A stretch of 64,000 nucleotides of DNA from a virus (taxonomy: Duplodnaviria > Caudoviricetes): the IMG/VR virus record IMGVR_UViG_3300032265_002598, positions 128,001 through 192,000 of that record; one strand, given 5' to 3'. The translations under genes were made by a program, and so were the position numbers. This document shows, piece by piece, positions 3,642 to 61,950 of this stretch (position 1 is the first letter of the stretch; the number at the start of each line of letters is the position of its first letter). The notes beneath the pieces were generated by a model. The model worked only from the letters and a program-made list of their open reading frames with translations, was not told where the DNA came from and did not search any database.

Positions 3642-4335
3642 GAGATGTTGATTGAAATGAGTCCTTAAACTTAATCTTATTTCCTAGGTTACGATGCAGT
3701 CTCATAAAACGAACCAGAATTTCTGCACAATCCTTAACATCTTTAAGAGCATCATGGGCACCTTCTTTATTAATACCAAGATAATCTCTTAGAGTATCTA
3801 AAGAAAGATTTTTTAGATCACTATTGTTTTCAAACCAATAGAAAACTAAATTCATAATATCTAATACATCTCTTGGATAAAAAATATCACTTCTATCTTC
3901 CTTATTAGTATTACCATATTTGCGACTAAGTCTATCAATAATTGGTAGGTCGAACCTATTAATATTATAGCCAGCGGCAATAGGGGCACTAAATTGGCTC
4001 TTCTTACTAGACCTGCTATGGTGCATAGTCAAATAATTTGTAAATAACTTCCATGATTGATCTTGAGAGGGATATTTCTTCCACTCTGCTAAAATAGACT
4101 CTTTTGAAGAACCTCTTACTTTAGCATGAAAATCTAATATGTCTGTAGTATATTGGTAATCTTCATTATTTGCCAAAACTTCTGGTTTAAAAAAGATATT
4201 AAATTCAGAATTTGGAACAATCTCTAATTTCAATGGATCGATAATCACTGCGGCAATCTGAACAGGACTACAAGACTTTGGGTCAGAGCCATCTGTTTCA
4301 AAATCAAACACACAAATTTTGTTATAGTTAATCAT
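3634..4335 (-). CDS. dnaQ: DEDDh 3'-5' exonuclease (DnaQ/epsilon-like)
   Basis: VFDFETDG (ExoI), AGYNINRFD (ExoII), GAHDALKDV (ExoIII). Confidence 0.9.
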   Translation of the reverse strand: MINYNKICVFDFETDGSDPKSCSPVQIAAVIIDPLKLEIVPNSEFNIFFKPEVLANNEDYQYTTDILDFHAKVRGSSKESILAEWKKYPSQDQSWKLFTNYLTMHHSRSSKKSQFSAPIAAGYNINRFDLPIIDRLSRKYGNTNKEDRSDIFYPRDVLDIMNLVFYWFENNSDLKNLSLDTLRDYLGINKEGAHDALKDVKDCAEILVRFMRLHRNLGNKIKFKDSFQSTSHA

Positions 4336-4532
4336 TCGGTGGTCTCAACCTCTACTTCTATTAATGGTAGAACCTGAATCTTTTGTTCTGGATTGTCTAA
4401 TCTAGCAGCATTTATAACTGTACAACAACTAATTCTTTGTTCTTCAGTCTTAGTATACTTATTAAGTTCAAATGTAAATACCTTACCAATAGCTAAATCC
4501 ATAAATTTAATCTTTTGGGTTGCCATAATCAA
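4332..4532 (-). CDS. hypothetical protein
   Basis: 66-aa ORF overlapping both neighbours by 4 nt (translational coupling). Confidence 0.7.
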   Translation of the reverse strand: MIMATQKIKFMDLAIGKVFTFELNKYTKTEEQRISCCTVINAARLDNPEQKIQVLPLIEVEVETTE

Positions 4533-18663: not shown

Positions 18664-19668
18664 TCACCAGTCAGAATGTTTGAATTTCAACATAACTTGC
18701 TTTATAGCCATCCACATATCTAAATATTGGTAAGTGGCTAATCTTCCTAGAAAAATAGTATTCTGTTCATTTTTAGATAATTGAATATATTTCTTTGCTA
18801 TCTCAACACCGTCACCAAATGGTATTGGGTAGTAAGGAATATTATTTTGGTTATATTTAACTGGATATTCTTCAGTAATAACTGTTGTGGACTGAGAATG
18901 ATTATGTTGCAAGTAGCTGTGGTCGTATTTTCTAGTATATTCTACAATATTATTATTTTGATTCTCTATAAAATATGGCATTTTTTTGTCTGTAACTGTG
19001 TGCTTAAATTCTAATGATCTATATGGAAGCTCGCCGTAGATATAATCATAGTATTCATCTATCTTACCAGTATATACAGTAAGATCAGTATTAAAATTTT
19101 TCCAGTCTTCATTGGAGCATGATAGTCTGATATCAAACCCTTTAAGCATATTTCCCATCATTTTAGTATATCCGTGTTTAGGCAAACACTGATACTTTTG
19201 TCCCTCAAACCAAGTAGGATCTTCACAATCTTTTGTTTTGGGTATTCTGTTTGTTATAGTTCGTGGTATAGAATCAAAAGGAACGCCCCATTGTTTTTCT
19301 GAGTAATCTTTAAAAATAAACTCTAATATTTCTTCTTGTGACAGCTCTCTACCAATTTCTTTCTTTGTTTTTTTACTATATGGTAAAGAAATAAGACCTA
19401 ATTTGGAATTGCCTTTTGGTTGCAACTTAAATGGAATCCAATCTGTATATCTGCTAAGAAACTCAAATACTTCATCATCATCTGTATGAAATATATGTGG
19501 ACCATAATTATGAATCATTGTTCCACATAAATTACTATCAAAACAGTTGCCACCAATATGATTTCTTTTATCAAAAATAGTGACACTATATCCTCTTTCT
19601 TTTAATAAAATAGCAGAGGTTATACCAGATAATCCGCAACCTATCACTTTAGCTTTTTGTGTTGTCAT
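18664..19668 (-). CDS. glf: UDP-galactopyranose mutase
   Basis: IGCGLSG, HIGGNC, YGPHIFHT, YSEKQWG, LPYRSL, PYYP, GRLATYQYLDM. Confidence 0.95.
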   Translation of the reverse strand: MTTQKAKVIGCGLSGITSAILLKERGYSVTIFDKRNHIGGNCFDSNLCGTMIHNYGPHIFHTDDDEVFEFLSRYTDWIPFKLQPKGNSKLGLISLPYSKKTKKEIGRELSQEEILEFIFKDYSEKQWGVPFDSIPRTITNRIPKTKDCEDPTWFEGQKYQCLPKHGYTKMMGNMLKGFDIRLSCSNEDWKNFNTDLTVYTGKIDEYYDYIYGELPYRSLEFKHTVTDKKMPYFIENQNNNIVEYTRKYDHSYLQHNHSQSTTVITEEYPVKYNQNNIPYYPIPFGDGVEIAKKYIQLSKNEQNTIFLGRLATYQYLDMWMAIKQVMLKFKHSDW

Positions 19669-20497
19669 CGTGTGTATTTTTGTTTTGGAAGGATAAAAGA
19701 ATATTATAGATTTTTTCGTATGCTGCTTCTTTAGTTAAATATTCTAGGGCAAACTTTTTTTGTTCTTGTTTGATATATTTTTGTATCTCAAGATCATTTT
19801 CGATAATATTATAGTTTTGTTCTAAGTCGCTAAGATCTTCTTTAATAGGAACATAGTGTTTCCAAGGAATAAAAAATTCATGCCACCATTCTTTATAAGG
19901 ATTATCTACTATAAAAACAATTCTCGGAGAAGATACTAATATTTTTAATCTAGCAGAATATCCTGCTCCTTCAATATCTAATAAATATTTCCATTTATTT
20001 ATTTGTTCTTGAAAAGATAAATATTTTGAAGTATTTTTCCATAAATTATCTGGATCTTCACGATTCCATTCTAATGTAATAGCTTCGGTCAAAGGAGTAT
20101 TTTGGTATTGATCAATATAAATTCTTCTCTTTTCTCCTGTAATAGCTCCTATCCATCCTATTTTGTTGCTTAATGGAATAGTATCTTCAAAAGAATTGAT
20201 TAATTCGTGATAGTTTTGAATATTACAAGCTGGCCAAGAATCGTAAGCAAAACAAGGAAATGTTTTTTGGTAATTTTGTGTTACAGTTGAAAAAGAAAAG
20301 TTTTCGCTATCGGATGGACGATCACCTGTCCATATAGACATCTCAAATTCTTTTCCAGGATAATTATTATATTTTTTAATACCATAACGAACAGAATTAT
20401 AAATCAGATCTCTTACGGATTCTCCTCTGTTTTCATAATTATTAAAAAGTCTTGTTTCTATTTTTTGAAGATCTTGTGATACTAAAACTAATCCCAT
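19649..20497 (-). CDS. GT90/CAP10-like glycosyltransferase
   Basis: KWKYLLDIEGAGYSARLKIL, EWWHEFFIPWKHYVPI motifs. Confidence 0.82.
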   Translation of the reverse strand: MGLVLVSQDLQKIETRLFNNYENRGESVRDLIYNSVRYGIKKYNNYPGKEFEMSIWTGDRPSDSENFSFSTVTQNYQKTFPCFAYDSWPACNIQNYHELINSFEDTIPLSNKIGWIGAITGEKRRIYIDQYQNTPLTEAITLEWNREDPDNLWKNTSKYLSFQEQINKWKYLLDIEGAGYSARLKILVSSPRIVFIVDNPYKEWWHEFFIPWKHYVPIKEDLSDLEQNYNIIENDLEIQKYIKQEQKKFALEYLTKEAAYEKIYNILLSFQNKNTHDDNTKS

Positions 20498-24226: not shown

Positions 24227-27200
24227 GATTTACATTCGGTTAAGGTGCCATCTTCGGTAATTGTTCCTATAACTTGGGAGAATGTATCATAACAAGATCC
24301 TGATATAAAAATAGCATCACCACTAACTAAATGATAGTTTTGTCCAGAAATAAATGTAGCATTTCCAATAACTGTACCTTTATTTTTACTAAATTCAAAT
24401 GTAGTATTATGATTTGTAGCTATTCCTTTGTTAGTAGAATTTATAAATAAACTATCAGAATTAGTATTAATAATATTTTTGTTTTCAGAATTATCAAAAA
24501 TGCCACCACCATTTTCAATTGAACCATTGTTTATGCTATAATAAAAAATGTAATCTCCAAAAATATATCCATGATCACTTTGAAGAATATGATCATTGCT
24601 CCAAATATATGTTTTTGTTCCAACTCTTTGTATAATAGGAATAGGATAAATTGGATATGGTGGAACGTATTCTATTCTTTCTATAGTATCAGAATTATCA
24701 TTAGTAGAACTCAAAAAAAGAGTTTTACCTGTAATAAAATGAGAATTTTTTGAGTTAGAAAATATTGATACTCCATTGATTGTGCCTTTATTTGTTGAAT
24801 TAATAAAAACAGTAGAACAAATATTATCTTGTATAAATCCAGAAACATATGGTTGCCTATAAAAATAAAGTATTGTTGGATCTATATTATTTTTAATATC
24901 ATCATTTCTACCATTAATAATATTTCCATAATTAATTGAATTATCACCAAAAGAACAAAGTCCATTTAATGTTGCTAAATAAGCATTAATAGAATTACCA
25001 AAAGAAGATGGACCATCTATATTTCCAAAATTTATACTTTTATTGAAACTTCCTCCATTTGCAAGATAGCCACCATAATTTGTGCTTTGATTAAAAAATC
25101 CAGTATTAGAGATTACACTATTTTTAGTTACAATTTTATTTCGAGCTAAAAATATATCAATATCAATATCACTAGTACGATAACTAAAATAAGATTTTGA
25201 TGGATTAAAAGCAGCATCTCCAAATAAAGCCCCATCTGTAAAAGTTGCTCCACTAGCAAAAATAGAGCTTACATATTCAGATTTATCGAAATTTGCTATA
25301 CCACCAACATTTGATGCGAAACATAAAGAGTTGTTCATGGTAAGATTGCCACCTATATCACCATAATTATCTGAATCGGTAAAAATAGCATCTCTAGTTA
25401 TATCTCCAAAATTAACAGAACCACTAAAATTACCACTACTATTAATATTGTTAAAGTTTTTGGAATTATTGAATATTGCAAATGTTGATAATGCACCAAA
25501 ATTTTTTGAACTATTGATGAAATTCAAAGTTCCGCTAATGCCTAAAATGTTACCAGAATTAATTGATCTATCAAATAATCCTAAATCAATAGTTCCATAA
25601 TTAATAGAGTCTTTAAAATTTACCGTATGTTCGATATTTCCATAGTTTGAACAAATTGCTCCTGTTCCAGTAGTACCATTAAAAATAGCAGTAATATGAT
25701 CACTAGGAAAAACTGGATATATAGAAATATTTGCATAATTAATTCCAGTATTTTTAAATATTACCTGTTTATACCCAAAAATATTTCCTCTATTTATAGT
25801 ATTATCTTGAAATATTATAGATGGACTTTTATTAAATAAAGTTAAAAAGCTTTCATTAGTTATGTTACCAGTATAATAAATAAAAGCATTTGATTGTGCA
25901 TCATAAACACTATCTATTGTTAATATTCCACTTGAAGTAAATATAAATTTTTCATGTTCTATTGGAGTCCAATTAAGTTTTCCATTATTTATTCCTGAAT
26001 TTTTAAAATTTATAGCAACATTTTCTAAAGAAGCATTGTTTATTCCACTATCTAATATTTCTATTTGACGAGCACCATATGTAAATTGATCTTGTCCAGA
26101 AACAAATGGTCTTCTCATTGAGCTATTATTTATAGAAAAATCATGAAAATTTGCTATTTCTAATACTCCCAAATTTTGATTTTTTGATCTATGGAAAAAA
26201 TCACCAGATTGTGCATATCCATAATTAGTAGAATTGTTTAAAAAATATCCACTATGTATTCCAGCCATTTTATCATTGAATGCATTATCAAAAAAAACTG
26301 CTCCTTTAGCATAGTTTTTATTAATAGAAGAACCCGAAAAGAAAATTAATCTATTATTTAAATATGCATAATTAATAGCGTTTTCAAAAAAATTACAACT
26401 ATAATTTCCAGAAGCATAATTAATAGAGTTTTGTCCAAATTCTGCAAAAAGTCCAATATTAGATCCACTCATATTACTAGACTGATTACAAAATATTGCA
26501 TTTTGTGCTGTAGCTCCAGAAATATTTTGACTATTACCATAAAAAGATCCATATCCAACATCTTTCCCGTTATGAGAAAAACTTTCAAATCTTCCACTTC
26601 CAACTTTTCCACTATTAGCAGATTGACCATAAAATATAGCCCCAGTAGCATTACCCACATTGATTGAAATATTATTAAAGATACCTAGATTAAAAATATT
26701 TCCACTATTTATTGAATCTTTATTAAATATACCAGTAACTAAACTACCACCATTAACACAGCCAGATCCAAAAGATGCTATTCCGGTTATTACAGATTTA
26801 TTAAATGATGCAGAGTCAAAAAAAGTCAAGGCGGCTGGAGCATTTAATTCACTCCAATTAGAAGAACCACTAATAAAAGAAATAATTCCAGAATTTCCAA
26901 TTGATCCACGATTTTCAGAATTATTCGCAAACAAAAAATTTCCAGAACCATCTCCAATATTGTATTGATTTTTAGCGAATGTGAATTTAGCTCCACTAAT
27001 TAATATACCATCATTAATAGCATAATCAAACCAAGAATATTTTTTTAATAATCCTTTGTTCAAAGTACCAGAATAAAAAATTGCTGGTTCTAAAATAATT
27101 CCTTTGTTGATTGCTCCGCTTACAAAAGTAGTAATTCCAGAAACAACTCCAGCATTAATTGATCCTACACCACTAAAAATTACATCTCCATATATTGTTC

Positions 27201-54399: not shown

Positions 54400-55551
54400 T
54401 CACCCGATACAAAACTTGTCACTAATTTGAGAAGCAAGGTCTTTAGCAGAGTTGGACAAGAATCTATTGTTGCTAAAGTAAAGCGGCGTTGAGACTTGAT
54501 TAAGGAACTCCACGACCGTTTTTAAAAGCTTGGTCTGCTGACCGTCCAGACTCATATCTTCGTCCTCTACGGGCATCCTATCGTCTACCAGAGCATCCTC
54601 ATCTTGGATGGGTTGAACTGGCATTGGATCGCCATAAGCCTTTTGAAAAACTGTACTCTTAGTATAACCATAAACATCCTTATAGGATTCTGTACTATTG
54701 TTATAGTTCTCAGGATTTGAAACTCTCATTTGATTAAGAATTTCTGTGGCAACATTTACTGACACTGGAACTCCCGTAATGTCAGACTTCTTATAAGCCT
54801 TAGCATATTCCTTAAACCACTCATCGCTAGTCTTATTAGCAATAATATTGACCACAGCAGAAACACCATCAAGAGCCTGCTTCAGTTGCTCAATATTTAC
54901 TGGATTGCCAGTTGATCCTGACAAAATACTAGTAAAGTAAGGTTGCTTACCCTCCCAACCTTTTCTCCACCAAGTATAAGGAATACGATAAATCTGATTA
55001 ATCTTAATAGCTCTGGCATCACCACCAAAATGATTTACCAGTTTCTTTTGAATACCGCTCCAATAAGTCTTATGAGGACTATTGGTATTTTGATTTAGAA
55101 TCCAATAGCACTGATAGCCATTACGAGTATCAACAACCCAGCTTGGTTTTACTGGAAAGTTATTGATCTTATTTAAGAACTCCCGCTTCTTTTGCATAAC
55201 AATGCTAGGCTTTAAATAGCTACCCTGCTCATCTCGTCCAGCGTCCATATCAACAAAACAAGCACGAACCCTGCTAATAGCATATTGCTTACGTCCACCA
55301 TTAACATAGAAGTAAGCATCAGCACCTTGACTATCGTTTGCAATAGCAACAGTAGTAAGATTGTCCGTATGGTTCATGCTACTGATCTTCTTACGAGGAT
55401 CGCCATTGTAGCAAAAAATCTGTTGACTACCCAAAGACTCAAAAAACTTATTCCTCAAAGTAATTTGATCTCTTGTTCCAATAGCACTATGAGTCTTATC
55501 GAACGGATTAAAAGCCAAAGTATCACTAAACATTTGTTTTCCTTTTTCCAA
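54400..55551 (-). CDS. RepB-family (AEP-type) DNA primase
   Basis: FYVNGG, RACFVDMD, PSWVVDTRNGYQCYW, RIPYT motifs. Confidence 0.75.
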   Translation of the reverse strand: MEKGKQMFSDTLAFNPFDKTHSAIGTRDQITLRNKFFESLGSQQIFCYNGDPRKKISSMNHTDNLTTVAIANDSQGADAYFYVNGGRKQYAISRVRACFVDMDAGRDEQGSYLKPSIVMQKKREFLNKINNFPVKPSWVVDTRNGYQCYWILNQNTNSPHKTYWSGIQKKLVNHFGGDARAIKINQIYRIPYTWWRKGWEGKQPYFTSILSGSTGNPVNIEQLKQALDGVSAVVNIIANKTSDEWFKEYAKAYKKSDITGVPVSVNVATEILNQMRVSNPENYNNSTESYKDVYGYTKSTVFQKAYGDPMPVQPIQDEDALVDDRMPVEDEDMSLDGQQTKLLKTVVEFLNQVSTPLYFSNNRFLSNSAKDLASQISDKFCIG

Positions 55552-55612
55552 CTTCCTATCTACAATTTTGATATTGGGACAGTAAACACTACCATCAAAA
55601 GCAATATCTTAA

Positions 55613-55694
55613 AAGATGGTAACGGAATCGAACCGTTATTGTACGATAGCAGAAACTATATAGGTGCTACCTTACAAGTTACCAAACACCACCT
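55613..55694 (-). ncRNA. tRNA-like RNA resembling a stand-alone tmRNA tRNA-like domain
   Basis: AGGTGGT/ACCATCT acceptor-like stem with G3.U70; AACGG-TTCGATT-CCGTT T-arm; stemless GTTTGGTAAC D-loop; 13-bp central helix. Confidence 0.6.
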
Positions 55695-55701
55695 TGACTA
55701 T

Positions 55702-56586
55702 CTAGTTATAAAAACCTTCTTCGTCCAACTCATCTTCATCGTCACTATCAAGATCGTCCTCATCCTCGTCCTCGTTATCAAACTGATCCCAATAACTCTC
55801 GTCATAATCATTCAGATAATCATCCTCATCATCTTCGTAATCATCTTCACTGAAATTGGCCTTGTAAAGAGGCTTGAGCAATTCGCCCTCATACTGTCCA
55901 ACCACTTCGTAGCGACAAGTACGAAGCTTTTCACAATTAGAATCGCTTGGAACACTGACTACATCCTTGGGATTGATCTTAACGATCACAATACGATCTC
56001 CAGCTTCCAGACTACCATAATTAGCAACATAATTTAATGCTCCAGCATGAAGTCCATTAGAACAACCACGACCACGATCATCGTCAACTTTTGCTCTTTG
56101 CATTTCGCAGACTTGACCAACACGGTTGTCAAAAACTCCTCTATACTTATCCTTAAAATCTGAACGAACAGCCTTATAAGCGAGAAAGAAACCATCCTCA
56201 GTAATGGGAAGATGCTCATGCTCCAAGAAATCATACAGTTCTTTTTGACTCTGCATACTTGGATTTTCCATGATATTATTCAAGAAATTAACAAGGGGCT
56301 GAAAAGGTAATCCCTTGCTCATAAACTCCAAAATACGCTTACTAATACTACCATGAACTTCCTCGCCCTCATAAAGAACCTGTCCATTCTTGATCTCCAC
56401 AAGACCATCGCTAAAAGCAGCAACAGCTTTCTGAACATCAACAACTTCCAGTAGTTCATCTGCCGTAGCAGTAGGAAGTCTTTCCAGAATCAACTTATAG
56501 TTGATATGATCTGGCAACACCTGATAACTCTGATTATTAAGAACCAGCGTCAAATTACCATCCACAAACATAAACGGAACAGCCAT
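55702..56586 (-). CDS. rIIB: rIIB-like protein with acidic tail
   Basis: LPITEDGFFLAYKAV, GLHAG, VKINPKDVVSVP.D...KLRTCRYEVV; directly follows rIIA. Confidence 0.85.
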   Translation of the reverse strand: MAVPFMFVDGNLTLVLNNQSYQVLPDHINYKLILERLPTATADELLEVVDVQKAVAAFSDGLVEIKNGQVLYEGEEVHGSISKRILEFMSKGLPFQPLVNFLNNIMENPSMQSQKELYDFLEHEHLPITEDGFFLAYKAVRSDFKDKYRGVFDNRVGQVCEMQRAKVDDDRGRGCSNGLHAGALNYVANYGSLEAGDRIVIVKINPKDVVSVPSDSNCEKLRTCRYEVVGQYEGELLKPLYKANFSEDDYEDDEDDYLNDYDESYWDQFDNEDEDEDDLDSDDEDELDEEGFYN

Positions 56587-56630: not shown

Positions 56631-56658
56631 ATTTTACACTAATCGGCAAGCTTGTCAA
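56631..56658 (-). promoter_or_regulatory. sigma70-like promoter for rIIB
   Basis: TTGACA-16 nt-TAAAAT. Confidence 0.65.
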
Positions 56659-56679: not shown

Positions 56680-59370
56680 CTACTTGACTAAACTACTCAA
56701 CTGAATTCTAAATAGGTCAATATTCTCTTGGCTCATCTGCATGATCCAATCCTTACCATCATTATTATAATACGAGTGACGATCATCAAGCTGATTAATA
56801 GGATTCTTCTTAGCTCTTAGATCAGTAAGAGTTCCAGTAACTTGATGACTACCAAGAATATACTTTAGTATAGGATTCTTATCAAGTTCAGTTCTGACGC
56901 TCTCTCTAATCTTAGAGATTGCTGGAAGTTTAAAGTTTTCCTTAGACTCACCCTTAATAATCTTCAGATAAGTTTCGGCCTTATCAGAATTAGATCCAGT
57001 ATAAAGTGATCGACTAATCAAACTGGTCAAGACATTGTAGGCCAAACTAGCCTTACGAATATCCTTACTATCTACTGATCGGATATTGGCTTTGTCCATT
57101 AACTTTGAGATATGAGAGAAATAATCTGATTGAGAAAATCTTTCAATCCTAAAGTTACTGTCATGAACAGTATTAGCAAAGAATTCCATGAGCATAGTAG
57201 TGTCTATGCACTCAACTAGAGTCTTGCTACTAATAAACTTTTCATAATTCAACCCAAAAATATTCAGCATATGAAACATGAACTGCTTGTCCATAGTTCC
57301 GTGATTGTAATATCTATAATGGTTATTCTTATGTTCCTCACTTGCATATTCTTTCTTACAGAAGTCAACAAGATCATTGAAAGAAGCCAAACTTGAAAAA
57401 TGTTTCTGAGTAACAATCTTTAACTGACGCTTAAAGAACTCATTAAAACTGACAAGATTATACCCATCATTTTGAAGCTTTTTAACAAAAGCATTTTTGA
57501 TAGCATAAATCTTACTATCTCCCAGCAAATCCTTGACTATAAACTTCAAACTATCATCACCAAGAGTAGTGGTAATATCATTAATCTCAGGATGACCAGA
57601 TTCAGCCTCAGTCTTATATCGAAGCATAGGAACGTACACTATCTCGTCCTGCTCTAGAAAATCTTCCAGTTGTTCTTCTGAAAGAATTCTTAGACAAGTA
57701 GCATCATTATAAGGATTGGTAATCTGCTTACTATCTTTGTCATAACCATGAATAAAGAATACATCTTGATCGCTTACGCTACCATTAGAGTTTCTATTGT
57801 AAGACTTTCTTGGGCCAGAACTTTGAGTAAGATGTTTGTAGTCTGAAACCTTTAGCAGATTTTCAGCACCAACATCTTCAATCAGTTTATCAAAACCTTC
57901 TCCACTCTTGGTGTGGTCTTTAGTATCAAGCATCAAGTAGGCAAAACAATCATTACTATTGCAATACTTTGTGATGATCTTCTTGGCTGTTTCTTCTCCC
58001 TTAACGTCACAGATAAAGAAAGCCATCGTGCCTTTTTTCCTCTGGTTATTCCAATAATAGGAACCTTTACCAGTAAGAGTTTCATGATGAATCTTATCTG
58101 TCAGAGCAACTTGGCGACGAGAACGATAGCCAGCAGTCTTATAATTAAAAACGTACAGACTCTTGCCAGCCGGAATTTTATATTCCAAGTCATTTCCAGA
58201 ATTGATCGGATGATCTTTACCCTTGGGATCAGTCCAAGTGGCACCAACACCCCAGCCGCCAGCCAATTCATTCATAGTATAATATGAAGTAATTGCTTCT
58301 ACCTTGGTCTTGGATGCTTGAATTTTCTTGGAGAATTCTTCCTTCATCTCCATGTAAATTTCTTGGGTCTTTTTACGAAGAGCCTTAATTACATCCTTGG
58401 TATACTGCAAACCTTCGCGGCTAACGTCCATCTCAAGTTCACCGATACCAAAATCCAGTTCAAGATAAAGGCCAGAGTTAAGAATCTCTCCCACAAAACT
58501 CTTCCAAGAATCAATGTCTGCTTTCTGGAAAGCCCTATTCCACTTCTGAATATGGTCGGGCATTTCTTCCTTTTCTTGACCAACAATCTGTGCGGTTTGA
58601 ACAGGATACGCAATATTTCCCATGATAGCGATGATACCACTATCAATTCGATGATAATTGCTGGGAAAATAACTGTTATCATTATTGAGTCGGCAAACTC
58701 TCCAACCCTCACCACTAATAACGATATTGGTATTGCTATACTTATGATCCATAAGATTTCCACCAACACCACCCTCAATGATGGGTTTCATTCGGAAGTA
58801 GTGAAAAATTCTCTTAGCCTTATCGGTGAACTCTTGAAAGTCATGCTGCTTAACAGCAAAACTAATCTCAAGACCATTAGGCTCAGATGTTTCGGCAGTA
58901 TTAAAAAGATTCAGAGTAGGAACACCACTCTCATCAATTGCTGCAATATAGGTATATTTCTTACCATTGTAATATGATGCAGTGGTAAAGCTCTTGGTGT
59001 AGGCAAACGGACTCTTAGACCCTAGACCAAGACAACCAACAAAATCATTGCTATCGTTCTTATTGGAAGCACCATAAGTTGTATACAAGTCCTCCATATC
59101 GGCCTGACTAAGACCAGTACCATAATCTCTCACCATAAAGGTAGGATTAGCAGCGGTGGGCAGAGTAACCTTAAAGGGATTCTTATTACCGGCAGAGATA
59201 TGACTATCATAAGCATTAGTAGAAAGCTCACGAATTGCTGCCATTACCTTATCAGAATAAAGAGAGTCTGAAAGGATTTTAAACATCTTGCTAGTCTGAG
59301 CGATGTTAAACTGATTCCTGCTTGCAACACCAACGCTGTGAGTCTCAATCGTCCTATCTGCCAACTTCAT
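56680..59370 (-). CDS. rIIA: rIIA-like protein (N-terminal GHKL/Hsp90-type ATPase)
   Basis: LSDSLYSDK, IRELSTNAYD, VRDYGTGLS, GCLGLGSKSPF, SREGL. Confidence 0.9.
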   Translation of the reverse strand: MKLADRTIETHSVGVASRNQFNIAQTSKMFKILSDSLYSDKVMAAIRELSTNAYDSHISAGNKNPFKVTLPTAANPTFMVRDYGTGLSQADMEDLYTTYGASNKNDSNDFVGCLGLGSKSPFAYTKSFTTASYYNGKKYTYIAAIDESGVPTLNLFNTAETSEPNGLEISFAVKQHDFQEFTDKAKRIFHYFRMKPIIEGGVGGNLMDHKYSNTNIVISGEGWRVCRLNNDNSYFPSNYHRIDSGIIAIMGNIAYPVQTAQIVGQEKEEMPDHIQKWNRAFQKADIDSWKSFVGEILNSGLYLELDFGIGELEMDVSREGLQYTKDVIKALRKKTQEIYMEMKEEFSKKIQASKTKVEAITSYYTMNELAGGWGVGATWTDPKGKDHPINSGNDLEYKIPAGKSLYVFNYKTAGYRSRRQVALTDKIHHETLTGKGSYYWNNQRKKGTMAFFICDVKGEETAKKIITKYCNSNDCFAYLMLDTKDHTKSGEGFDKLIEDVGAENLLKVSDYKHLTQSSGPRKSYNRNSNGSVSDQDVFFIHGYDKDSKQITNPYNDATCLRILSEEQLEDFLEQDEIVYVPMLRYKTEAESGHPEINDITTTLGDDSLKFIVKDLLGDSKIYAIKNAFVKKLQNDGYNLVSFNEFFKRQLKIVTQKHFSSLASFNDLVDFCKKEYASEEHKNNHYRYYNHGTMDKQFMFHMLNIFGLNYEKFISSKTLVECIDTTMLMEFFANTVHDSNFRIERFSQSDYFSHISKLMDKANIRSVDSKDIRKASLAYNVLTSLISRSLYTGSNSDKAETYLKIIKGESKENFKLPAISKIRESVRTELDKNPILKYILGSHQVTGTLTDLRAKKNPINQLDDRHSYYNNDGKDWIMQMSQENIDLFRIQLSSLVK

Positions 59371-61675: not shown

Positions 61676-61950
61676 TAGGAGCGGTGAGAATCGAACTCAC
61701 ACTGGATGGATTTTCTTACCACTATAGTTTTCACTACCATTTCTGTTTGTGGTCTGGACTTTATCTTAACCATAACTTTCGTTTTAGGTTCCTGCCGTTA
61801 AGTCTCTACACCTTCTTAATATTTCTATTAAGCTTGGCTCGGTATTAGCAGTTAAGCCTTCACCGAATTTGACAAGTTCTACATTAAAGATTTCTCTCTA
61901 AGCACTCAAATTGTATAAGTCCACTGTCTCTGCCGTTGGACTACGCTCCC
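61676..61950 (-). tRNA. trnL: tRNA-Leu(UAA) interrupted by a group I intron; no encoded CCA
   Basis: Exon1 GGGAGCGTAGTCCAACGGCAGAGACAGTGGACTT (61950-61917) + exon2 AAAATCCATCCAGTGTGAGTTCGATTCTCACCGCTCCTA (61714-61676) gives a cloverleaf with CU-UAA-AA loop. Confidence 0.92.
61715..61916 (-). ncRNA. 202-nt group I self-splicing intron without ORF
   Basis: Inserted after U34, ends in G; GAGU can pair with exon ACUU (P1); R-like GTAGAGACTTAACGG and S-like AAGATAAAGTCC elements as in cyanobacterial trnL(UAA) introns. Confidence 0.9.

Follow-up and report, generated by a model that had tools for sequence, protein, structure and literature searches.

The stretch of 64,000 nucleotides (nt) analyzed here, hereafter called the window, covers positions 128001-192000 of an IMG/VR phage record that is complete, 201,067 bp long, and bounded by direct terminal repeats. 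On its minus strand, rIIA (positions 56680-59370; PHROG 612, E 7.8e-113) is followed by rIIB (coding sequence 55702-56586, stop codon TAG at 55702-55704; PHROG 609 RIIB, E 1.3e-70). Downstream of rIIB, the ORF list contains a gene of 377 aa on the same strand (54400-55533), here called the MFSD... gene. Its probable start codon is ATG at 55531-55533; an AAGGA Shine-Dalgarno sequence is located in front of it, and the product weakly matches primase/polymerase-like PHROG families. rIIA and rIIB are separated by 93 nt, and within this gap we noticed a near-consensus sigma-70-type promoter (56631-56658, minus strand; TTGACA, 16-nt spacer, TAAAAT; 11 of 12 matches). No GenBank phage matched this phage at the DNA level, and the rIIB proteins of the closest cultured phages are at most 41% identical to its rIIB, indicating that it is a member of an uncultured freshwater clade.

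The 3' end of rIIB (55705-55780, minus strand) encodes a hypervariable, acidic, D/E/Y-rich tail, which differs in length and sequence even among phages with approximately 90% identity over the first 245 rIIB residues (same region of loci L002-L287). Among close relatives, the last 60 nt of rIIB are only 71% identical.

Directly downstream, the rIIB sense strand (minus) contains a tRNA-like element at positions 55613-55694, with the sequence first quoted in the initial annotation. The RNA proposed there turned out to be real, conserved, and not annotated, and the fold drawn for it is the minimum free energy (MFE) fold. All of its parts are located on the minus strand. A 7-nt leader, AUAGUCA (55695-55701), which is conserved in classes A and B of the family described below, connects the rIIB stop codon to A1. 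The acceptor stem is formed by the 5' strand AGGUGGU (55688-55694) and the 3' strand ACCAUCU (55614-55620); it is supported by the fold and by covariation and is 100% paired in 26 variants. Nucleotides 8 and 9 are absent, and the acceptor stem is followed at once by a D-like hairpin, GUU-UGGU-AAC (55678-55687), which carries the GG of the tRNA elbow and is supported by the fold and by covariation in class A. In place of the anticodon arm there is a class-specific central hairpin (55639-55677) of 12 bp and an A.G mismatch with the 13-nt loop CCUAUAUAGUUUC (55652-55664). The T arm, AACGG-UUCGAUU-CCGUU (55621-55637), is followed by the 3' acceptor strand and then by the discriminator U (55613) and a U-rich trailer (together 55610-55613).

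The MFE fold (-21.9 kcal/mol, z = -2.56; 2 of 200 shuffled sequences folded equally well) comprises the 7-bp acceptor stem, the central helix of 12 bp and one A.G mismatch with its 13-nt loop, and a 5-bp T stem with the loop UUCGAUU. The acceptor end has A1-U72, G2-C71, G3.U70, and U73 and lacks an encoded CCA; A1-U72, G3.U70, U73, and the missing CCA had all been read correctly at the outset. The D region was initially described as a stemless loop. It does contain the UGG, but it closes as a 3-bp hairpin (GUU/AAC with a UGGU loop), which covaries in relatives. An alternative fold, in which UGGUAAC would pair with GUUACCA, had also been suggested; this pairing showed no covariation and is broken in 6 of the 26 class-A variants.

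The searches proposed in the initial annotation, ARAGORN and the Rfam tRNA, tmRNA, and YrlA models, returned no match at the window's element. The ARAGORN runs covered its default, intron, mitochondrial, and tmRNA modes. Lowering the thresholds produced only inconsistent folds around the T arm, with anticodons differing among family members, and in tmRNA mode a lowered threshold produced nothing at this position. With default settings, ARAGORN called nothing in the window and recognized 0 of 99 family members. The Rfam models gave no match at gathering thresholds or at E values up to 10, and at E up to 1 the loci of 10 relatives yielded no tRNA match. The sole Rfam match in the relatives' loci was that of a T arm to the tmRNA model at one locus, with 18.5 bits (threshold 47 bits). 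Compared with a canonical tRNA, the element has the 7-bp acceptor stem and the 5-bp T stem with a T-psi-C loop; a 5-bp anticodon stem with a 7-nt loop, U33, and an anticodon is absent, and tRNA finders do not detect the element.

Versions of the element in related phages

Searches of IMG/VR based on rIIB confirmed 177, 442, and 416 related stretches. From approximately 280 loci of related IMG/VR phages (some contigs were taken more than once), we obtained 99 distinct versions of the element. All 99 are located downstream of rIIB, 4-34 nt (mostly 4-13 nt) past the upstream stop codon, and all share a 7-bp acceptor stem, a directly adjoining D hairpin whose loop is UGGN, a T arm of canonical form, and a trailer rich in U. 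This comparison indicates that the element is one member of a large, strongly conserved, unannotated family of tRNA-like RNAs. Because the family is invisible to ARAGORN and Rfam, it represents a gap in phage genome annotation. Four of the GenBank phages with the closest rIIB were examined and lacked a tRNA-like element after rIIB; two of the closest GenBank phages examined have a plain hairpin and a U run at the same place.

The T arm is 99.6% paired across the 99 versions, with three to five pair types at each position. Its stem has 5 or 6 bp, with 6 bp (and thus 13 rather than 12 stacked pairs) in 18 of the 99, and its loop is UUCGAUU in 89, UUCGAUC in 7, and UUCAAUU in 3. The element clearly descends from a tRNA gene, and among its natural T-arm variants is one with exactly the sequence found in the phage tRNA-Arg. 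Acceptor positions 3-7 are 92 to 100% paired, with three to six pair types each; the 1:72 and 2:71 pairs are weak or mismatched in class C. The D hairpin has 3-4 bp in the relatives (mostly AGUC-UGGN-GACU or CCGC-UGGG-CGG) and is 97% paired; its pairs show compensatory changes. In 97 versions the discriminator is U, and in 86 of 99 the four bases that follow the acceptor stem start with UUU. Pair 3:70 is A-U in 39 versions, G.U in 30, G-C in 21, and another combination in 9 (including A.C in 4, G.A in 2, and also A.A).

The part that replaces the anticodon arm is variable. It ranges from 5 to approximately 45 nt and occurs in at least five forms across the family. Classes A and B have a 13-bp helix closed by a 13-nt loop, and class C has a larger domain that is branched. 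Class D has 13-14 nucleotides without pairing at this place, and class E has a hairpin of 6 bp closed by a hexaloop. L206 is the smallest member, with a center of only 5 nt (14 nt if the D hairpin is counted). Members of classes A and B share the conserved loop motif CUAWAUAGUUU, and compensatory changes maintain their central helix. A T[AG]GTT motif is present in the center of 71 of the 99 versions, while approximately 9 were expected. Sites complementary to the 13-nt loop are not enriched in the genome (16 sites versus 7-24 in shuffled sequences), giving no sign of antisense targets. The initial annotation had listed a decoy for anticodon nucleases among the possible functions. Since the region of the anticodon arm is the least conserved part, such a role is unlikely.

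A covariation analysis in related phages had been proposed as a test of the element, and it revealed compensatory changes in every conserved helix. In class A (26 distinct sequences), 99.9% of the cells are paired and six pairs are compensatory, which was matched by 0 of 500 shuffles. Three of the compensatory pairs belong to the central hairpin. Apart from one U-A to U.G substitution at 7:66, the acceptor stem differs among these sequences only at 3:70, where A-U or G-C replaces G.U. In 41 diverse relatives, whose alignment was made with a covariance model and hence leans towards structure, the 15 pairs of the top half (the acceptor stem, D hairpin, and T arm side of the molecule) are 95.1% paired, compared to 75.1% in shuffles and 46-61% in slid controls, and 14 of the 15 have compensatory changes. 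The segmentation of all 99 versions was model-free. Because G.U cells outnumber A.C cells in these 99 versions (76 versus 7), the structure is read on the sense-strand RNA.

The element is also more conserved than its neighbors. Among 38 class-A haplotypes, its identity is 93.2%, whereas the coding sequences on either side reach 84.6% (rIIB) and 83.3% (next gene). The element is thus under purifying selection.

Flanking sequences and a second tRNA look-alike

Shortly after the element, the 5' UTR of the MFSD... gene contains another structure, hairpin 2 (55570-55608, minus strand). RNAalifold predicted an outer 7-bp stem, an internal loop, and an inner 8-bp stem, with 10 of 15 pairs compensatory in 21 diverse relatives; invariant UG and CCC flank the inner stem. 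Hairpin 2 is found only if the MFSD... gene follows and travels with this gene, not with the tRNA-like element. It could serve as a 5' stabilizer or as a translational operator. Approximately two thirds of the loci have hairpin 2 and then the MFSD... gene after the element. In approximately one third of the relatives, a different gene starts 7-30 nt past the element; some of these starts lack a Shine-Dalgarno sequence, such as UUUAAAUUAUG of class E. A gap of 7-30 nt leaves no room for a promoter, so transcription must pass through the element.

One subgroup (L075-L080, approximately 3805-4516) has an extra ORF of approximately 650 nt between rIIB and the element, with a GC-rich hairpin and a U run ahead of the ORF. 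Given this insertion upstream and the gene replacement downstream, both flanks of the element are points of gene exchange.

A plain T-arm pattern scan of the whole genome detected a second anticodon-less tRNA look-alike outside the window (genome positions 19613-19693, minus strand). It has the acceptor stem GUGUGUG/CACACAC, a 5-bp D arm whose loop contains GG, an irregular center, and the T loop UUCAAAU. It begins 5 nt past the stop codon of a small acidic ORF and ends 3 nt (UUU) before an ATG at 19607-19609, which opens a conserved ORF of 169 aa lacking a Shine-Dalgarno sequence. Approximately 20 relatives retain this junction, with UUU or UUUU before the ATG. In one divergent relative, the acceptor stem is GUGGAUG/CAUCCAC, the T stem also has compensatory changes, and the look-alike is located 8 nt before the ATG. 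The layout is that of mitochondrial tRNA punctuation, and by this analogy, a near-leaderless mRNA would be produced. The acidic ORF in front of it shows no similarity to the acidic gene that follows the rIIB element in relatives.

ARAGORN and both covariance models missed the second look-alike. In the whole 201-kb genome, the covariance models (R1 and R2) detected the window's copy and true tRNAs only. As they found no further copy, the tRNA-like element does not punctuate operons in general. At genome positions 25871-25887, we noticed a third perfect T arm, ACGGG-UUCAAGU-CCCGU (minus strand, outside the window); a D-arm-like segment and a CUAUAU-containing hairpin are nearby, and the acceptor pairing is weak.

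A candidate processing mark and alternative readings

We favor the reading, with a probability of approximately 55%, that the element is a cis-acting processing mark of the RNase P/RNase Z type, comparable to t-elements or mascRNA. The initial annotation had named such a signal among several functions, and of these it fits the comparative data best. RNase P, RNase Z, and the CCA-adding enzyme recognize their substrates by the tRNA top half and elbow. The reading as a processing mark is based on the conservation of this top half while the center varies, together with the covariation, the purifying selection, the constant position between cistrons, the trailer, the layout of the second look-alike, and the precedent of the t-elements. 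Fold, conservation, covariation, and the invariable position between cistrons are direct observations, and from them we infer the following enzymatic steps. The element would be a tRNA top-half mimic built into the rIIA-rIIB transcript, retaining what the tRNA end-processing machinery of the host recognizes: the coaxial helix of acceptor stem and T arm, the elbow of D-loop GG and T loop, and a CCA-less, non-C trailer. RNase P would cut 5' of A1 (55694), creating the 3' end of the rII message 7 nt past the stop codon, and an RNase Z-type cut after the discriminator U (55613) would give the downstream message a 5' end that lies a few nucleotides upstream of a stable hairpin. The released RNA of approximately 82 nt, probably CCA-tailed, would be unable to decode and not alanine specific. 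At the second look-alike, a cut after the discriminator would yield an mRNA starting 2 nt before the AUG.

The trailer is in line with such a cut. RNase Z prefers U after the discriminator. The CCA-less tRNAs and the tmRNA of the phage have (C)UU trailers in eight of nine genes, and with its U-rich trailer the element resembles them. C residues and CCA after the discriminator are RNase Z anti-determinants (PMC7479834). Several features are untypical of good RNase P substrates, namely A1-U72, A instead of U at -1, the lack of nucleotides 8 and 9, and the weak 1:72 and 2:71 pairs of class C; the 6-bp T stems in 18 of the 99 versions also count against a processing mark. A search of JGI metagenome contigs for CCA-tailed copies gave five matches, all of them unrelated coding sequence. 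Furthermore, a pure cut-site model neither requires nor explains the central helix and the CUAWAUAGUUU loop that are kept in classes A and B.

This last point leads to an alternative in which the released, probably CCA-tailed top-half mimic is a trans-acting product and processing is only its maturation. It could serve as a decoy or sponge for host factors that bind the acceptor end or elbow of tRNAs, for instance defense toxins directed against tRNA 3' ends, or RNase P/Z and the CCA-adding enzyme. Conservation above that of the flanking genes, selection on the class-specific central hairpin and its loop, and the recurrence of T[AG]GTT in 71 of 99 centers agree with a trans-acting product, and an immunity that cleaves tRNA tails has been reported (PMC12851939). 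This alternative is compatible with the processing model and does not exclude it. Against it, the center is unconserved across classes and nearly absent in minimal members (L206), a single RNA would face competition from all tRNAs of the cell, and complementary targets of the loop are not enriched. A gene for a partner protein was not found either: searches of the genome for a CCA-adding enzyme, SmpB, and Ro60 (TROVE domain) gave no match, and a search for Rnl1 gave none in the phage genome nor in any control genome and is therefore uninformative. Because the central helix, the loop, and the T[AG]GTT motif are not explained by a cut site, we give a trans-acting role a low but appreciable probability. 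Slightly less probable is a combination in which decoding-dead tRNA mimics punctuate transcripts as in mitochondria and the released CCA-tailed half-tRNAs are themselves active. The possibility that the element is a branched intrinsic terminator or a 3'-end protector of the rII operon appears improbable. In this case, the acceptor helix together with the U tract would halt the polymerase or shield the message from 3' exonucleases, and the fold would stay on the mRNA. The U run that adjoins the acceptor stem hardly varies, there is a weak terminator-like call overlapping the T arm, and two of the closest GenBank phages examined have a plain hairpin and a U run at the site. However, read-through is required where the next ORF begins only 3-30 nt downstream, as in approximately one third of the relatives and at the second look-alike; the stem beside the U tract is A/U-rich and often mismatched, and a long-range helix that closes a branched insert of 50-75 nt would be an atypical terminator.

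The initial annotation stressed a resemblance to the tRNA-like domain (TLD) of tmRNA with alanine identity, which would make the element an AlaRS-charged mimic bound by SmpB or EF-Tu and modulating trans-translation. G2-C71 and G3.U70 are indeed present in the window's copy and in most members of classes A and B, and the phage invests in trans-translation by encoding a tmRNA of its own (genome 195237-195586, minus strand, outside the window; tag GKTSLALAA, G3.U70, A73), next to tRNA-Ile(UAU) (genome 195784-195860, minus strand). However, the 3:70 pair varies, being A-U or G-C in class-A variants and A-U, G-C, A.C, A.A, or G.A elsewhere; position 73 is occupied by U instead of A, an encoded CCA is lacking, and many relatives do without the long helix. 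Since G3.U70 is not conserved, the discriminator is U, and no CCA is encoded, the TLD/alanine reading fails. Neither ARAGORN nor Rfam called the window's element, the genuine tmRNA is separate, an SmpB gene is absent, and t-elements, the closest analogues, are not aminoacylated (PMC11658184). We regard a charged mimic as very improbable, and equally so a decaying tRNA pseudogene without a function of its own. The evident descent from a tRNA gene, the T-arm variant shared with tRNA-Arg, and the inconsistent anticodons called among members at lowered ARAGORN thresholds would suit a pseudogene. Its decay is contradicted by the covariation, with compensatory changes in every conserved helix across several hundred contigs, by conservation above that of the neighboring genes, and by the fixed position.

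Under the combined reading, in which the elements punctuate transcripts and the released RNAs are active, excision by RNase P/Z of the host would set how soon the rII message decays and, at the second look-alike, create leaderless mRNAs. The released half-tRNAs could then act as decoys for host defenses or enzymes that recognize the acceptor end or elbow of tRNAs.

Comparison with known tRNA-like RNAs

Marks for RNA processing that are shaped like tRNAs without being tRNAs have precedents in plant mitochondria and in a small number of eukaryotic long noncoding RNAs; our literature search found no description of such marks inside bacteriophage operons. If the host enzymes RNase P and RNase Z cut at these sites, a large clade of freshwater phages would set mRNA ends through the tRNA-maturation machinery. 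This would provide a cheap control of message stability and translation, with an almost leaderless mRNA at the second site.

Mitochondrial tRNA punctuation was reportedly described by Ojala, Montoya, and Attardi in 1981. There, excision of tRNA-shaped units between cistrons yields mRNAs that start at or near the AUG, a geometry similar to that of the second look-alike. Mitochondrial punctuation uses working tRNAs, whereas the phage units are unable to decode, and the 201-kb genome yielded only two such sites. For MALAT1, Wilusz et al. reportedly described mascRNA as a tRNA-like 3'-end module in 2008. In this system, RNase P makes the 3' end of the upstream RNA, and RNase Z and CCA addition release a small tRNA-like RNA. 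Both mascRNA/MALAT1 and menRNA are tRNA-like 3'-end modules (PMC9777231), and the phage element resembles them as a tRNA-like structure that ends a longer transcript and has a poorly conserved anticodon region. In contrast to these eukaryotic, nuclear RNAs with their triple-helix-protected 3' end, no such protector is visible past the rIIB stop codon.

Plant mitochondrial t-elements have a conserved T arm, are located at mRNA ends, and are cut by RNase P/Z, CCA-tailed, base modified, and not aminoacylated (PMC1920247, PMC11658184). The phage element shares with them a tRNA-derived, non-canonical cloverleaf in which the acceptor stem and the T arm (GGTTCRANYCC) are conserved and the remainder is non-canonical, the location at mRNA ends, and the lack of an encoded CCA. 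It is also positioned at a cistron boundary as t-elements are, with a start codon within 3-30 nt in many relatives. The differences are the phage instead of organellar setting with an independent origin, the replaced or deleted anticodon arm, and the missing nucleotides 8 and 9; processing here is a prediction.

Other tRNA-like RNAs resemble the element in fewer respects. In the TLD of tmRNA, as in the element, the 5' and 3' ends pair to give the acceptor stem, the D region is reduced, the T arm is canonical, and a helix replaces the anticodon stem; the window's copy also shares its G3.U70. Unlike tmRNA, the element has no mRNA-like domain, no P2-linked pseudoknots, and no tag reading frame, and its helix is closed by a 13-nt loop. 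The YrlA-type Y RNAs of bacteria and phages also include a module that mimics tRNA and has both T and D arms. The long Ro-binding stem of YrlA is built from its ends and the acceptor-like helix is closed, whereas the ends of the phage element form the acceptor stem; an assignment to Y RNAs was rejected on this basis, together with the lack of an Rfam match and of a TROVE domain in the genome. The stable RNAs C and D of phage T4 (species 1 and 2) are encoded in a tRNA gene cluster, have tRNA-like ends, and are of unknown function. Like the element, they are small phage-encoded RNAs with such ends, which in T4 are matured by the tRNA-processing enzymes of the host. In contrast to the element, they are longer, unrelated in sequence, and not located at the end of a protein-coding operon.

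With regard to genuine tRNAs, ARAGORN reported eight in the genome in addition to the tmRNA. A tRNA-Leu(UAA) gene in the window (61684-61950, minus strand), which ARAGORN did not report, is split by a group I intron (61733-61926; detected by Rfam). The intron is inserted between U34 and A35 of the anticodon, at the site of the cyanobacterial and plastid tRNA-Leu intron. Relatives such as L124, L089, and L107 have an intron-less tRNA-Leu(UAA) gene.
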